From the IMG/VR virus record IMGVR_UViG_3300024259_001623: a stretch of DNA of 64,000 nucleotides. One strand, 5' to 3'. Numbering within the stretch: the stretch's first letter is position 1; each line of letters starts with the position of its first letter. Below are positions 6,362 to 14,285 of the stretch, in pieces. The translations under genes were made by a program, and so were the position numbers. Source of the DNA: a virus. Lineage: Duplodnaviria; Caudoviricetes. The notes beneath the pieces were generated by a model, which was not told the DNA's origin, did not search any database, and saw only the letters and a list, made by a program, of their open reading frames with translations.

Positions 6362-6982
6362 TTAATTTCTTATATATAAGTAAACCGCATCATGTATTCC
6401 ATCCCATTTAGGTATATCAATACGTTCTACTTGCGACCATTCATTCTCAAGAGTGCAATGAAGGTCGTCATCTCCAGTGCATCCCCACCCTCCTTCTCCA
6501 ACATAAACTAGCTTATTTCCTTTAAAATTCTTTATAGCTTCATTCGCCATTGAATCAGCATATGGAGGCCAAACTGTCATCAAAACTCCATAACCACCAT
6601 ATTTCTCTAAAGCTTTTAAAGCATCTAAACTCTCTACATGAGTAAAAGACTTAGAAGAAGGATTAAATTTTTCTCCATAATAATCTGAATGTGCATCAGT
6701 AGCGGCAATATCTGCTCCTTCATCCTGTAGCAACTTGGCCCATAAACCATAACCAGCACCAATCTCTAATATTTTTTCGCCGGCAATAAAATCATTTATT
6801 TTTGATATGGCTTCTCTATTGGGAACAGACCAACCATAATCTTTTATATATTTATCTCTTCTATACCAATCCATCAAAGATTTATGCTTTTTATCTTGTA
6901 ATTCGTCAAGATAACCTTCACCGCCAGGCCCATAATGCTCCAAATCCTCATATAGCCCCATTGATGTTTTGTACCAATTCAT
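6362..6982 (-). CDS. Class I SAM-dependent methyltransferase with an MNWYK leader
   Basis: Motif I ILEIGAGYGLW. Confidence 0.8.
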   Translation of the reverse strand: MNWYKTSMGLYEDLEHYGPGGEGYLDELQDKKHKSLMDWYRRDKYIKDYGWSVPNREAISKINDFIAGEKILEIGAGYGLWAKLLQDEGADIAATDAHSDYYGEKFNPSSKSFTHVESLDALKALEKYGGYGVLMTVWPPYADSMANEAIKNFKGNKLVYVGEGGWGCTGDDDLHCTLENEWSQVERIDIPKWDGIHDAVYLYIRN

Positions 6983-7356
6983 TAATTATACTCAAATATT
7001 CTAGGATTTCCAAATGCCCTATCTAACTCTTTTATAACCCTCTTTTTAGCAAAATCCATTCTGCTGATCGGGCCATCATAAACTATCGCAGGAAAATATA
7101 CCACACTGGCTGTATGCCTTTTAGCTTCATATCTGCCTCTAGCAAACATTTCATTCTTGTCTGGCCATAAGTCCAAATGAGTCAAAGTTTTACCTTCTTC
7201 ATTATATAAGTCTTTTATATCTAAACTAAAATCTTTATACATAACCCATATCTTATCGCCAGGAGCATCCTTATGTCCTACACTTAAATAGAAAGGATTC
7301 TCATATCTAGAATCATCAACAGGCAGGGCTATTTTTATTTGTTTATACCAGTTCAT
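6982..7356 (-). CDS. MNWYK paralog family protein (copy 1)
   Basis: Leader MNWYKQIKIALPV; YLSVGH, W, H, ARGRY, LD..FGNP. Confidence 0.9.
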   Translation of the reverse strand: MNWYKQIKIALPVDDSRYENPFYLSVGHKDAPGDKIWVMYKDFSLDIKDLYNEEGKTLTHLDLWPDKNEMFARGRYEAKRHTASVVYFPAIVYDGPISRMDFAKKRVIKELDRAFGNPRIFEYN

Positions 7357-7739
7357 TATCTATACTCAATTATTGTAGGATTATTAAATTGTTTATCCAA
7401 AACAGATATAATTTTTTCTCTCATTTTTTCTCTTCTAGGAGGAAATCGAACCATACTATATTTTTGTTCATAAACTAAACTTATTCTATGATTAAAATCT
7501 TCATATCTTCCTCTCGCTAACATATCAGACCGATCTGGCCATAAATCTTCATGAGTGAGTACAATACCATCTTCATTATATAAATCATAAACATCTAGAT
7601 AATAATCACTAAATAATGCCCATATCTGGTCCAAAGGTTTGTCCTGATGTCCTACACTTAAATACGAAGGGCGACGATGACCTCGTTCGTATCTTGTATC
7701 GACAGGCAATGCTATTTTTATTTTTTTATACCAGTTCAT
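7356..7739 (-). CDS. MNWYK paralog family protein (copy 2)
   Basis: YLSVGH, ARGRY, LDKQFNNP. Confidence 0.9.
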   Translation of the reverse strand: MNWYKKIKIALPVDTRYERGHRRPSYLSVGHQDKPLDQIWALFSDYYLDVYDLYNEDGIVLTHEDLWPDRSDMLARGRYEDFNHRISLVYEQKYSMVRFPPRREKMREKIISVLDKQFNNPTIIEYR

Positions 7740-8437
7740 TCTGCTTCCCTCAAATATCTAGCAGGAATGTCATTATAAAATATTACTGTACCATGACTTA
7801 ATCCATCCGAACTGTCCACTTCATAATAAAAATCCTCTAAACCAATCTTATGAGCTAATGTCTCTATCAATTCGGCCTCTTCTAAAGGCCCTTCTTTGCC
7901 CACAGTTGGCATGTAACCATCTCTTTTCATCTGTCCGACGTTAATCTCAATCACCTTATCATAATGGTTCCTGGGGGTTCCTGGGTCATCAGAAGTAAAC
8001 ACAGCAGACCCAGTTCCTCTGTTAGAAATCCCTCTAGTCTCATCTCTAGATTCAAGACCATTTCTTATTATATCATCAAACCTCTCTTCGCCAGTTCCAT
8101 GATATAACATAAATCCATCAGAAACGTCATCCCAAAATTCTTTATTAAAATCTCTTTCGTCTACATAACGATAAGCATTTCCGCTGTTCGCTATATTCTG
8201 GATCCAGTCTACAGGCTCTTGAACTTCATAATATCCACCTAATTCAATTATCACATGAGTACCATTAATAATGGCAGATATTATTCTATCACCATCGAAA
8301 TCAATGATCTCGAAGTCTTTAGTTAATCTCTGTATAAGATTTATAACTTCTTCATCGCTATTACTATCTTCAATATAAGATTCGTAATCTGCGATTAAGT
8401 CTGCTTGCTCAATTTGTGCTTGCTTATACCAGTTCAT
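7736..8437 (-). CDS. Putative ADP-ribosyltransferase-fold protein with an MNWYKQAQ leader
   Basis: LYHGT...IIRNGL...AVFTS pattern typical of the ART/Tpt1-like fold. Confidence 0.55.
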   Translation of the reverse strand: MNWYKQAQIEQADLIADYESYIEDSNSDEEVINLIQRLTKDFEIIDFDGDRIISAIINGTHVIIELGGYYEVQEPVDWIQNIANSGNAYRYVDERDFNKEFWDDVSDGFMLYHGTGEERFDDIIRNGLESRDETRGISNRGTGSAVFTSDDPGTPRNHYDKVIEINVGQMKRDGYMPTVGKEGPLEEAELIETLAHKIGLEDFYYEVDSSDGLSHGTVIFYNDIPARYLREAE

Positions 8438-12649: not shown

Positions 12650-13116
12650 TAATTAAATACCGATATCTTAGGATTATTAAAATGTTTATCTACAGATCTA
12701 AGCATCATTTTTTCAACATGATTTCTTCTATTAATGGAATATCCTCTTAATGCAGAAGTATATACGAAAGAAACTATATTGTTATCTCCTTCATATCTAC
12801 CTTTGGCTAAAATAGATTGATCTAGAAGCCCCCAGACATCCCAATGAGTATATCTTTTGATAATACCTATATCATTAACACCTATCGCTGGATTCTCAAT
12901 TATCTCATAATTTTTTTGCATTATCCATATAGTTTCTTTATTTTTATCTATTTTTTTCTTGACTGATTTTTGAGCTTCTGGCTCTAGTTTATGAAAAATC
13001 ATACCTTCAACATCTCCAATTTCAAAATATCCTTCATGACCATAATCCATATAATGACTTGATGGAATAGTCTTATCAACTGGAAGAGCTAATTTTATTT
13101 GTTTATACCAATTCAT
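12649..13116 (-). CDS. MNWYK paralog family protein (copy 9)
   Basis: YMDYGH, AKGRYE, VDKHFNNP. Confidence 0.9.
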   Translation of the reverse strand: MNWYKQIKLALPVDKTIPSSHYMDYGHEGYFEIGDVEGMIFHKLEPEAQKSVKKKIDKNKETIWIMQKNYEIIENPAIGVNDIGIIKRYTHWDVWGLLDQSILAKGRYEGDNNIVSFVYTSALRGYSINRRNHVEKMMLRSVDKHFNNPKISVFN

Positions 13117-13530
13117 TTAAAACTCATATATTGCTGGGTTATTGAATTCTCTATCTAATATATTAGAAACTTGTTTTTTAATATATTCCATCCTTCTAGG
13201 GTTTGTTGTATCTGGATCTACATTAATTGCTACGCTAGTTTTTCCTGAACCATCTCTGTGTTTTATATATCTTCCTGATGCTATAGAATCTTTTGATCTA
13301 TAACTAAAATCTAAATCAAAGGCGTAGTCATGAATCGTTCCGATGTTCATGTCAGTTACGGGGATAGTCTTAATATCAAAATTATAATCTATTGTCCACA
13401 AAATCTCTTGAACAACTTTATCAAATCTAAAATGTTCCATCTTGTCATAATGACCTATATCTGTATAGTCCATCTCTCTTGGAACATTAACTACAGGTAA
13501 TGCTAATTTTATAACTCTATACCAATTCAT
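13117..13530 (-). CDS. MNWYK paralog family protein (copy 10)
   Basis: YTDIGH, ASGRY, LDREFNNP. Confidence 0.9.
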   Translation of the reverse strand: MNWYRVIKLALPVVNVPREMDYTDIGHYDKMEHFRFDKVVQEILWTIDYNFDIKTIPVTDMNIGTIHDYAFDLDFSYRSKDSIASGRYIKHRDGSGKTSVAINVDPDTTNPRRMEYIKKQVSNILDREFNNPAIYEF

Positions 13531-13914
13531 TTAAAACTCATATATAACAGGATTATCAAATTGAATATCTAATATTTTATGTACTTTTTCTTTAATCTTT
13601 TCTAATCTTCTAGGATGTAAATCACCTTGATATGTATTTATAATAAGACTAGTTTTCTTTTTTCCAGCTAAATCTAATATAAATCTACCAGAAGCAATTG
13701 AATCATAATACATTTTGCCAAAAAAATCAAAATGAGCATCTCTCTGCGTTTCCGGAGTTATAGGATAAGATTGGAAATTCCAATTTTCGTCTACTATCCA
13801 TATGATTTCTTGTTGATTAAATTTTTTATCAGTATGCCCTATGTCTGAATATTGCATATAACCAGGCGTATCAACAACAGGCAATGCTAATTTTATTTCT
13901 TTATACCAATTCAT
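13531..13914 (-). CDS. MNWYK paralog family protein (copy 11)
   Basis: YSDIGH, ASGRF, LDIQFDNP. Confidence 0.9.
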   Translation of the reverse strand: MNWYKEIKLALPVVDTPGYMQYSDIGHTDKKFNQQEIIWIVDENWNFQSYPITPETQRDAHFDFFGKMYYDSIASGRFILDLAGKKKTSLIINTYQGDLHPRRLEKIKEKVHKILDIQFDNPVIYEF

Positions 13915-14285
13915 TATTCATAATCATATATTGCAGGGTTATCAAATGTCTGATCCAATATTTTCGCAACTCTTTGTTTAATAAATTCTAATCGTTGTGG
14001 AGATGTTTCTCGCAATATAAAATGGGACCAATAAACGCTTACTACTTTTTCTCCATTTTCTTTTTGCATAAATCTACCATAAGCCATTCCGTTTTCTAGC
14101 TCATCTTCTGTAAAAATATTAACATGATTAAGGGCTTCTGTATCCGTTTTTATATTCCAATTTTTATCTATTAACCATAATGTTACATTATTTTTATTCA
14201 GACCATGACCTATATTAACATAATGTTGCGGTTTGTTTCGCTCCGTTATAGGCAATGCGATTTTTATAACTCTATACCAGTTCAT
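13914..14285 (-). CDS. MNWYK paralog family protein (copy 12)
   Basis: YVNIGH, AYGRF, LDQTFDNP. Confidence 0.9.
   Translation of the reverse strand: MNWYRVIKIALPITERNKPQHYVNIGHGLNKNNVTLWLIDKNWNIKTDTEALNHVNIFTEDELENGMAYGRFMQKENGEKVVSVYWSHFILRETSPQRLEFIKQRVAKILDQTFDNPAIYDYE

Follow-up and report, generated by a model that had tools for sequence, protein, structure and literature searches.

An undescribed domain expanded to twelve copies in a huge phage carries a short N-terminal tag that is shared with unrelated proteins

Within a stretch of 64,000 nucleotides from a huge phage (hereafter, the window), we found twelve copies of a previously undescribed domain, encoded in genes whose products start with a short peptide, MNWYK followed by K-x-A, which is a portable tag present on non-homologous proteins as well. 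Our preferred reading, held tentatively and at rather less than even confidence, is that the array is the expanded core of a locus resembling the internal-protein (IP) locus of T4, encoding head-loaded, protease-trimmed and ejected effectors; the family would then have diversified as an enzyme acting on, or a protein binding, a phosphate-bearing ligand. Head loading, cleavage, ejection and biochemical activity are what we infer from the observations presented below.

The ORF list and an alignment of the domains (alignment A1) bore out the eleven genes and twelve domains that the initial annotation had placed at 6982-14285, all on the minus strand and all belonging to one paralog family. The array is, however, not purely a tandem of family members, as its span also contains four non-family genes (7736-8437, 8434-9243, 10881-11402 and 11399-11860). 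It lies amid non-structural genes according to the window annotation. The source phage is uncultivated and is represented by a contig of 434 kb. The genes are as follows (family copies were assigned from the ORF list and alignment A1 unless stated otherwise):

14380..15468, minus strand: subtilase (Peptidase_S8; Pfam PF00082, 1.8e-57; phrog_3677 protease)
13914..14285, minus strand: family copy 1, 123 aa, with an MNWYR tag
13531..13914, minus strand: family copy 2, 127 aa, the reference for the AlphaFold2 (AF2) model and for residue numbering
13117..13530, minus strand: family copy 3, 137 aa
12649..13116, minus strand: family copy 4, 155 aa, with a long insert after the GH motif (alignment A1, loop lengths)
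11861..12649, minus strand: two-domain gene, 262 aa, family copies 5 and 6 (alignment A1); the second domain, from approximately 12256, has kept K-E-I-K-T-A-L-P-V and lost N-W-Y
11399..11860, minus strand: tagged non-family 2H phosphoesterase of the Swiss-Army-Knife type, 153 aa (PF22547, 6.4e-11; phrog_12204), with an MNNWYN start and K-V-A-S at residues 12-15
10881..11402, minus strand: tagged non-family gene, 173 aa, MSWYKVAQ (ORF list), with no known domain in Pfam or PHROGs
10504..10884, minus strand: family copy 7, 126 aa
10132..10503, minus strand: family copy 8, 123 aa
9683..10132, minus strand: family copy 9, 149 aa, with a long insert (alignment A1, loop lengths)
9243..9680, minus strand: family copy 10, 145 aa, with a long insert (alignment A1, loop lengths)
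8434..9243, minus strand: tagged non-family gene, 269 aa, whose N-terminal ~160 aa are fused to the family domain in protein P0124 of a relative (BLASTP, 43% identity, E 7e-50; domain map)
7736..8437, minus strand: tagged non-family gene, 233 aa, MNWYKQAQ, weakly ADP-ribosyltransferase (ART)-like (Y-H-G-T motif; Pfam PARP 0.0016, below the cut-off); its similarity to the ART-PolyVal protein of a relative is confined to the tag, with none beyond it
7356..7739, minus strand: family copy 11, 127 aa
6982..7356, minus strand: family copy 12, 124 aa
6362..6982, minus strand: tagged non-family SAM-methyltransferase-like protein, 206 aa (phrog_19090, 1.6e-34; Pfam Methyltransf_23, weak)
6005..6349, minus strand: downstream gene, 114 aa, with the weaker leader M-K-K-I-K-T-A-S (ORF list, K-x-A check)
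5607..5963, minus strand: further downstream gene, 118 aa, TTG start, with S-W-Y-K-T-A-Q at residues 6-12 (ORF list, K-x-A check)

Junctions between the array genes were of -4 to +2 nt throughout, which fits the translational coupling previously proposed for them. The tag occupies the first 5-10 residues, and its family version reads MNWYKxIKxA-x-P. The initial annotation had treated this conserved start as a feature of the family, a view that does not stand, since a start of M[N/S]WY[K/R] or MNNWYN is common to each of the 16 genes that follow one another from 6362 to 14285, including those for the 2H phosphoesterase, the ART-like and the methyltransferase-like proteins, while the two genes further downstream carry the weaker form. 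Among the 17 cluster ORFs, 16 had K-x-A within their first 14 residues, compared to 5 of 59 other ORFs of the window. Homologues of the methyltransferase-like protein in other phages begin at approximately residue 25-40 (tblastn against phages) and therefore lack the tag. At the DNA level, the near-identity reported for the first ~35 nt holds for the initial 15 nt (mean identity of 94%) and weakens over 36 nt (mean of 84%, range 69-100%). Codon use in the tag equals the bulk codon bias, so it is selection on the peptide that keeps the 5' ends near-identical; that these ends seed recombination is possible, although this is not needed to explain them. As the tag is common to unrelated neighbours and to other families, the likely biology shifts towards a tag-addressed set of effectors.

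With regard to the family, copies are 26-41% identical to copy 1 over the whole length, and all pairs show 21-46% identity when the leader is excluded. The Tyr, Gly-His, Trp, second His, Ala-x-Gly-Arg, Ser and Asp residues claimed to be invariant were confirmed as such in the twelve domains of alignment A1 (invariants: I7, K8, A10, P12, Y22, G26, H27, W37, H54, A68, G70, R71, S83, D111, N116 and I119), and the wide variation of the intervening loops was matched by the measured lengths, namely 9-37 residues from His to Trp, 17-27 from Trp to the second His, and 10-20 from the second His to Arg. A broader alignment (A2; 136 sequences with a mean column identity of 15%) gave, in the numbering of copy 2 (in which positions such as H61, G76, R77, S89, D116 and N121 are named), a conservation of 100% for H27, H61 and G76, 99% for R77, 98% for S/T89, and 93% for both Y22 and W39. 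The family site is thus an invariant or near-invariant His-His-Arg set (His27, His61, Gly76-Arg77 and Ser89) with Tyr22 and Trp39 nearly invariant. Variable loops flank both histidines, and this pattern of fixed polar residues next to loops of changing length suits a putative active or ligand site of varied specificity. The polar residues picked out in the earlier proposal of a shared His/His/Arg pocket are the ones that stay fixed across the 136 sequences. The pocket itself is putative, the only structural hint towards it being the predicted β3-β4 hairpin of the AF2 model, in which R77 and S89 face each other as cross-strand neighbours. On weak covariation evidence, D116 and N121 look structural rather than catalytic.

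The same residues could be explained in a different manner if the twelve domains were non-enzymatic internal head proteins (inner-body or DNA-packing proteins), in which the two histidines and the arginine would serve folding, or metal, protein-protein or DNA contacts. The heads of phiKZ, 201phi2-1 and SPN3US hold paralogous, protease-trimmed ejection proteins, and the tandem paralogs, the N-terminal leader with a protease-like motif, the huge-phage setting and the lack of cysteine in all 12 copies agree with this precedent. The likeness extends to tandem paralogs in giant phages and to N-terminal trimming at a short protease motif, which is putative here. However, there is no sequence or fold relation, the phiKZ-like proteins are cleaved at x-x-E, unlike the motif of the tag, and they are extended structural proteins, whereas the present copies look like a domain with a conserved site. 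Furthermore, the pI of the copies ranges from 5.8 to 9.2 and offers no consistent DNA-binding charge, and two histidines and a Gly-Arg that stay invariant at a mean column identity of 15%, with variable loops, are more typical of an active or ligand site. Relatives have only 1-5 family copies, often beside enzymes rather than head genes, and some of them fuse the domain to other tagged domains. Taken with these observations, we regard an inner-body role as quite improbable.

In order to place the family among known proteins, profile and structure searches were combined. The AF2 model of copy 2 (pLDDT 88.3, pTM 0.81) predicted an α/β module of ~110 residues with the order β-β-α-β-β-long α-β, preceded by a leader (first 10 residues) that is probably flexible given its pLDDT of 52. 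In agreement with the initial annotation, which had not recognised the family, no match was obtained in Pfam (E<=1), in PHROGs or in a profile search of the PDB (entries up to April 2026), nor did the AF2 model retrieve a convincing fold match from five structure libraries. The family profile retrieved 216 metagenomic clusters (representatives, E<=1e-3); among the 150 listed, an MNW[Y/F] start is nearly universal. The weak top structural match was the Gelsolin/ADF-H fold (Foldseek and VIA-align; best E 1e-2, TM 0.33-0.38, Z <=4.5, identity 5-15%), which shares a mixed β-sheet packed on one long helix; its actin-binding and calcium-site residues are absent from the family, and we treated the likeness as a common arrangement and not as homology. 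The best viral structural match was a 1415-aa uncharacterised protein of an uncultured tailed phage. Candidate identities were also rejected on specific grounds. Metal-independent RNases of the BECR/PBECR type gave no Pfam match at E<=1, and neither Foldseek nor VIA-align returned barnase, RelE or colicin; these enzymes have an N-terminal helix followed by a sheet of 4-5 strands, with a His in the helix and a Ser/Thr in strand 4, whereas the family is arranged as β-β-α-β-β-α-β. The family resembles BECR only loosely, in having a His where a helix begins and a Ser within a strand. The two H-x-[T/S]-x motifs of 2H phosphoesterases are absent, with the positions two after H27 and H61 unconserved and no Pfam 2H match, and no chains of the anti-defence sponges or ring nucleases Tad1, Tad2, Acb2 and AcrIII-1 were present among the PDB Foldseek, VIA-wide or HMM matches.

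The tag was also followed in related contigs, where the exact DNA pattern of the tag start occurred 4-10 times per contig compared to 0 for a reversed control. The proteins tagged there include ART-PolyVal, AAA_33 kinase, DUF5661, GNAT, HicA, HTH/sigma-r4, 2H/Acb1-like, 2-hydroxyacid dehydrogenase and PcfJ-like proteins; PF18760, PF22547, PF13671 and PF18905 were matched on tagged neighbours, none of them by the family itself, and a weak ArdC-N match was seen within the tagged set. Some relatives fuse 2-5 copies (five in protein P0010) or join the family to other tagged domains of undescribed function. In these multi-domain family proteins, NWYK and K-x-A recur at the domain boundaries, as expected for processing sites.

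The link to the head was measured throughout in G001, a complete but distant relative of 548 kb that shares 13 of the 76 window ORFs at 27-54% identity. Here, the major head protein gene (phrog_2522, 1.2e-64) is immediately followed by one of the tagged clusters. In a protease-scaffold fusion of 1868 aa, 15 instances of K-x-A-[QSTE] were counted against 3.1 expected (Poisson P 1e-6), the top value of 554 ORFs, with the portal ranking third and a 454-aa head-module protein fourth. In particular, this last protein contains F-N-L-K-K-T-A-Q and F-N-W-K-E-A-Q, both near N-W-Y-K-x-A-Q. T4-type head protease and capsid models (PF03420, PF07068) found no match in five related records, nor in the controls.

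According to the head-loading reading that we favour, the N-terminal address would direct tagged proteins into the assembling prohead, the head maturation protease would cut it off at the K-x-A site, and the mature domains would be ejected into the host along with the DNA. Once there, the family domains might act as diversified enzymes or tight binders of a phosphate-bearing ligand (RNA ends, nucleotides or nucleotide signals) beside the co-tagged RNA-repair and host-modifying enzymes; this putative activity is suggested by residue types alone. Several observations count against head loading. The K-x-A-x-P segment is kept in internal repeats and forms a β-bridge in the AF2 model (pLDDT ~80), and may hence belong to the fold instead of being a propeptide that is discarded. 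Family members have L, F or M and then Pro behind K-x-A, where the G001 head proteins have Q, S, T or E, so the same protease might not cut there. Tagged HTH regulators, the HicA toxin and the dehydrogenase would be unusual capsid cargo.

These proteins would be more natural in the cytoplasm, and the tagged set could consist of cytoplasmic effectors that are never packaged, with MNWYK/K-x-A being a recognition handle for something else: the adjacent intracellular S8 subtilase (which might activate the proteins or destroy them at a set time), a chaperone or adaptor, an enzyme that modifies N-termini, or a degron that trimming would expose. The position of the array among non-structural genes agrees with this, as does the subtilase, which has no signal peptide and heads the window operon: it opens the co-oriented block and lies 94 nt upstream of the array. 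Its catalytic Asp and His are separated by a basic insert, and its residues 10-15 read Y-L-K-S-A-G. An S8 gene also lies inside a tagged cluster of the relative G004. However, the linkage is not conserved, as the G004 enzyme has a secretion-type leader and the sole S8 gene of G001 is ~26 kb or more from any tagged cluster. A cytoplasmic handle moreover leaves unexplained the concentration of K-x-A-[QSTE] in the protease-scaffold, portal and neighbouring head proteins, as well as the tagged cluster after the major head protein gene. We consequently consider it unlikely, though worth keeping in mind.

The closest functional parallel to head loading is the T4 IP locus, where a short conserved N-terminal peptide (the CTS, of ~10 residues) stands on unrelated, fast-diversifying small proteins of neighbouring genes. 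It brings them into the scaffolding core and is cut off by the prohead protease, and the proteins, once ejected, counter host defence (PMC3012670). Similarly, a tag of 5-10 residues is present here on 16-18 adjacent genes, homologues of the methyltransferase lack it elsewhere, and K-x-A is enriched in the protease-scaffold and portal of G001. The putative cleavage motif differs (K-x-A versus [L/I]-x-E in T4), the scale is larger, with at least 16 tagged genes, several clusters per genome and 12 copies of one domain family, and packaging and cleavage are putative here. The tag itself is unlike the T4 CTS and has no known sequence similarity to it. A second parallel is provided by the polyvalent proteins of phages and conjugative elements, for which a packaged, co-injected counter-defence role was proposed, whose domains are multiplied and shuffled, and for which ART, 2H and kinase domains as well as LPDs are typical (Iyer et al. 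2017; PMC5512222). The tagged set likewise comprises ART-PolyVal, 2H-SAK phosphoesterase, P-loop kinase, DUF5661 and a weak ArdC-N. In contrast to the 2-15 domains per polypeptide of those proteins, the window genes are single-domain, each with its own tag, except for one two-domain gene, and the family is absent from the Pfam models derived from that work (PMC5512222).

A wider formulation, which we hold as possible with appreciable doubt, is that a clade of huge phages uses a new N-terminal address and cleavage code (N-W-Y-K ... K-x-A) to fill the capsid with separately encoded effectors for co-injection, with the twelve-copy His-His-Arg domain as a new enzyme or ligand-binding fold and the most expandable member. 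If true, polyvalent proteins would have a dispersed counterpart based on tags, and the T-even IP locus a far larger version. Were the tag a head-loading address, it would list, readable from sequence, the ejected proteome of an uncultivated huge-phage clade, which otherwise requires virion mass spectrometry on phages that no one can culture. The enzymes that bear the tag form a coherent set of counter-defence and RNA-repair types. The tag also flags likely early-acting effectors, such as the His-His-Arg domain and the PcfJ-like, 'LMFYPW' and 'FYELEYKY' proteins; like the T4 CTS, it could become a tool for packaging foreign proteins. The domain itself is small and soluble, lacks cysteine and has a confident model; four of its positions (polar or glycine) are invariant, and it has no structural relatives. 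It is thus an easy target for structure determination and for ligand or activity screens.

Finally, the domains could form a library of sponges for small-molecule signals, or of nucleases, in which each member is specialised for a different immune signal or RNA of the host, as the initial annotation had suggested. Known sponges, ring nucleases, 2H, BECR and other RNases were matched by neither fold nor sequence (PDB to April 2026; Pfam), and we judge this specific function rather improbable; it is compatible with, and nested within, the head-loaded effector explanation and not opposed to it. The invariant His/His/Arg/Ser/Tyr site with adjacent loops of varying length argues in its favour, as do the 2H phosphoesterase and ART-like neighbours, the Acb1-like 2H proteins and PNK-like kinases among the tagged neighbours in relatives, and the multiplied RNase (PBECR) domains of packaged polyvalent proteins (PMC5512222). 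Elsewhere in the window, RNA ligases and a phosphoesterase are also encoded.

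The window is part of a metagenomic contig of 434,625 bp, and its gene content on a contig of this size, namely RNA ligases, a sigma factor, a PARP-like gene, a GIY-YIG endonuclease and six tRNAs, indicates a huge phage. In this window, 19 co-oriented, closely packed minus-strand genes run from 15468 down to 5607, with junctions of −4 to +2 nt between the genes of the array, and a scan for internal promoters and terminators across the operon gave no signal above that of shuffled sequence controls. The following features of the operon are relevant here.

6982-14285, minus strand: tandem array of the His-His-Arg domain family, with four non-family genes also inside the interval
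8434-9243, minus strand: gene for a 269-aa tagged protein without a match in Pfam or PHROGs
14380-15468, minus strand: S8 subtilase upstream of the array, lacking a signal peptide

An alignment of the family domains confirmed the tandem array of 11 genes and 12 domains described in the initial annotation, with its Y, GH, W, H, AxGR, S and D residues and its widely varying loops. Y22, G26, H27, W37, H54, A68, G70, R71, S83, D111 and N116 (numbering of this alignment) were invariant in 12 of 12 domains, and the spacing between them was constant outside three loops of 9–37 (H to W), 17–27 (W to second H) and 10–20 residues (second H to R). No cysteine was present in any of the 12 copies, and their pI values ranged from 5.8 to 9.2. 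Whole-length identity to the first copy was 26–41%, and pairwise identity among all copies, calculated without the leader, was 21–46%; the highest values (40–46%) were found between neighbouring copies, which points to old tandem duplications.

The core of the array is a domain family without detectable relatives. Pfam and PHROGs gave no match for family members, and a profile search covering 1.84 billion representative proteins retrieved 216 clusters at E ≤ 1e-3 (132 at E ≤ 1e-10), all of which, where checked, were unnamed metagenomic proteins. Similarly, no match was obtained among GenBank phages, either by megablast of the array or by tblastn of one member, or in IMG/VR by an exact 24-mer scan, and a search of GTDB genomes with one copy found no relative. 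In a wider alignment of 136 sequences (mean column identity 15%; residues are numbered from here on as in the copy at 13531-13914), H27, H61 and G76 were invariant, while R77 (99%), Y22 and W39 (93% each), S89 (88%, plus 10% Thr), A74 (87%) and D116 (85%) were highly conserved, in agreement with the conserved polar site that had been proposed initially.

A confident AlphaFold2 model built from the 136-sequence alignment (pLDDT 88.3, pTM 0.81) placed these residues as listed below.

Secondary structure elements in the AlphaFold2 model of the family domain
Residues 35-41: beta1, carrying W39
Residues 47-51: beta2
From residue 61: short helix, with H61
Residues 74-80: beta3, with A74, G76, R77 and Y78
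Residues 86-92: beta4, with S89
Residues 101-118: long helix, with L115 and D116
Residues 123-126: beta5

Judging from the hairpin register in this model, R77 and S89 would be cross-strand neighbours. Mean-field covariation over 172 sequences, in which a few small subclades drive the signal and may make it phylogenetic, hinted at a contact of the GH loop with S89 and, with that same limit, of the K-x-A-x-P segment with D116 and N121; these contacts carry no weight in the interpretation below. With regard to known folds, the best PDB matches in Foldseek were gelsolin/ADF domains, which were not convincing (E 1e-2, TM 0.33–0.38), and VIA-align against 48,161 chains reached a maximum Z of 4.5, corresponding to gelsolin-like noise. 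The sole match in the AFDB clusters was the family's own entry; ESM Atlas and the PDB sequence profile search returned no match, and the language-model atlas no named cluster. The best BFVD match (TM 0.53), to an uncharacterised 1415-aa protein from an uncultured tailed phage, was not deemed convincing either. The initial interpretation is supported in part: the family is unrecognised, with a conserved polar site, and none of the libraries searched matched it convincingly. From the residue types and the genetic context, we infer that the site would bind or attack a phosphate-bearing ligand, with paralog-specific recognition, given the two invariant His residues, the Gly-Arg pair, the adjoining Ser/Thr and the conserved Tyr and Trp, together with the variable loops that flank the histidines and the RNA-repair and ADP-ribosylation company which the domain keeps.

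Judged by sequence, the leader of these proteins is a modular tag common to unrelated proteins, a feature that the initial annotation had missed. All 16 consecutive genes at 6362-14285 start with M-[N/S]-W-Y-[K/R] or MNNWYN, and five of them lie outside the family: a Swiss-Army-Knife-type 2H phosphoesterase (2H-SAK; PF22547, 6e-11), a weakly ART-like protein, a SAM-methyltransferase-like protein and two proteins without known function. Weaker forms of the tag (K-I-K-T-A-S and S-W-Y-K-T-A-Q) were found in the two genes that follow downstream. A K-x-A within the first 14 residues was present in 16 of 17 cluster ORFs versus 5 of 59 other ORFs of the window, with the S8 subtilase at the operon head being one of these five. 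Since the alignment with methyltransferase-like homologues from other phages begins only at residue 25–40, the start of this protein is an addition. Tag codons match the bulk codon bias (AAT/AAC, TAT/TAC, AAA/AAG) and substitutions are conservative in the protein (N/S, Y/F, K/R), which argues for selection on the peptide and not on the RNA. An RNA-level cause, i.e., a downstream box or a recombination seed only, was ruled out on these grounds and also because the motif is kept within fused polypeptides. Residues 1–10 of the AlphaFold2 model had a pLDDT of 52, which suggests a flexible leader, and full-text literature searches with the tag strings gave no relevant match. As regards the 8434-9243 product, its first ~160 residues share 43% identity (E 7e-50) with the N-terminal part of the metagenomic protein P0124, where a His-His-Arg domain is joined to it at the C-terminal end, which provides a Rosetta-stone link between this gene and its family neighbours.

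Of the 150 family representatives among the matches listed, nearly all start with MNW[Y/F], and in relatives clusters of 2–6 consecutive tagged genes occur on IMG/VR and other metagenomic contigs; the DNA pattern of the tag start was found 4–10 times per related record versus 0 in the reversed control. The tagged cargo of relatives comprises ART-PolyVal (PF18760), 2H-SAK and Acb1-like 2H phosphoesterases, an AAA_33 P-loop kinase, DUF5661, a GNAT acetyltransferase, HicA, HTH and sigma-region-4 proteins, a 2-hydroxyacid dehydrogenase and PcfJ-like proteins. A core synteny recurs, consisting of a 650–740-aa 'LMFYPW' protein with a C-terminal 2H-SAK, a ~350-aa 'FYELEYKY' protein, the family domain, a PcfJ-like protein, a kinase and an ART. 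The comparison of copy number suggested in the initial annotation showed 1–5 copies of the family domain in relatives versus 12 in the window. In multi-domain relatives, NWYK and K-x-A repeat at domain boundaries; Pfam and PHROGs identified no informative partner domains in these proteins, and when fusions with the P0109 C-terminal domain were sought, the query alone was returned. LR756500.1, a 462-kb phage with a methyltransferase homologue, has no MNWYK starts, which places it outside the clade. Two related loci are described individually.

L174:2763-13511, plus strand, on a 133-kb contig: tagged operon adjoining an 896-aa CCA-adding/poly(A) polymerase-HD protein, with a 743-aa tagged protein (C-terminal 2H-SAK), the family domain and a 765-aa PcfJ-like protein
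L173:953-3274: P0038, a 773-aa protein with four untagged copies of the family domain and an N-terminal domain matching phrog_18642 and phrog_2086, both of unknown function

The gene order of the first is the same in L002 and L117, and the second shows that the family domain also occurs without the MNWYK tag.

A complete 548-kb related phage, G001, was rebuilt from IMG/VR and stands in for the window's own genome, with which it has 13 of 76 window ORFs in common (27–54% identity). Its 16 tagged ORFs fall into four or five clusters, one of which immediately follows the gene for the major head protein (phrog_2522, 1.2e-64); this gene is preceded by those for the portal and for a protease-scaffold fusion.

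L144:801-6407, minus strand (G001 12200-17806): 1868-aa fusion of a head maturation protease (phrog_18299, 2.4e-10) and a presumed scaffold
L134:5356-5592, minus strand (G001): MNWYK-tagged HicA-type toxin domain (PF07927, 2e-09), between the genes for the major head protein and a 1188-aa collagen-repeat protein

When the 554 G001 ORFs were ranked by Poisson enrichment of K-x-A-[QSTE], the fusion came first by a wide margin (15 observed versus 3.1 expected, P 1e-6), with four of its 15 sites in the first 90 residues, ahead of the protease domain. The portal ranked third, and fourth was a 454-aa head-module protein bearing F-N-L-K-K-T-A-Q and F-N-W-K-E-A-Q, near to N-W-Y-K-x-A-Q; several further head-region ORFs were among the top 15. 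Cleavage by herpesvirus assemblin, which has the same fold as phage prohead proteases, occurs after the Ala of x-x-A/S sites. A motif repeated in scaffold and portal and also present at the end of the leader is, by analogy with T4 gp21 and phiKZ gp175, the signature expected of maturation cleavage.

The S8 subtilase could instead be the true partner of the tag, acting as a tag peptidase, given that its gene adjoins the array at the operon head; however, its linkage to tagged clusters is not conserved in relatives. The catalytic Asp and His of this enzyme are separated by a very basic insert (~70 residues), which includes N-L-K-S-A-Q-K-K, and the Y-L-K-S-A-G at its residues 10–15 suggests that the subtilase may itself be a substrate or a member of the tagged set.

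We tentatively propose that the array is the expanded member of a set of tagged effectors, which the tag would address to the head and which would probably be loaded there and ejected into the host. Among known systems, the T-even internal-protein locus comes closest; its diverse defence-countering proteins are loaded into the scaffolding core by a common capsid-targeting sequence (CTS), the only element they have in common (PMC3012670); by analogy, the array reads as a CTS-like address combined with a diversified internal-effector locus. Polyvalent proteins, for which packaging and injection together with the DNA were proposed (PMC5512222), have the same repertoire as the tagged cargo, although in the latter it is distributed over separate genes that each bear a tag. 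Against head loading, the family residues that follow K-x-A are hydrophobic-Pro, and this segment seems to be docked on the family domain, a weak point of the proposal. Furthermore, regulators, HicA and a dehydrogenase among the cargo would be odd for a capsid.

Three further regions of the window were observed.

18000-36000: GC of 0.42–0.47 versus 0.30–0.35 in the array, with only short ORFs and three of the six window tRNAs
47630-49688, minus strand: PARP-like protein with WGR, regulatory and catalytic domains (PF00644, 1.9e-28)
52357-58491, minus strand: RNA-repair style block with a conflict-system-type GT4 glycosyltransferase, a metallophosphoesterase, an RNA ligase with a PHA02142 OB domain, a sigma-70-like factor and a T4 Rnl1-like ligase

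The PARP-like gene adjoins a GIY-YIG/NUMOD3 homing endonuclease, and its product is 45% identical to a homologue encoded by the 548-kb relative. The RNA-repair style block is in keeping with the RNA-repair character of the tagged 2H and kinase proteins.
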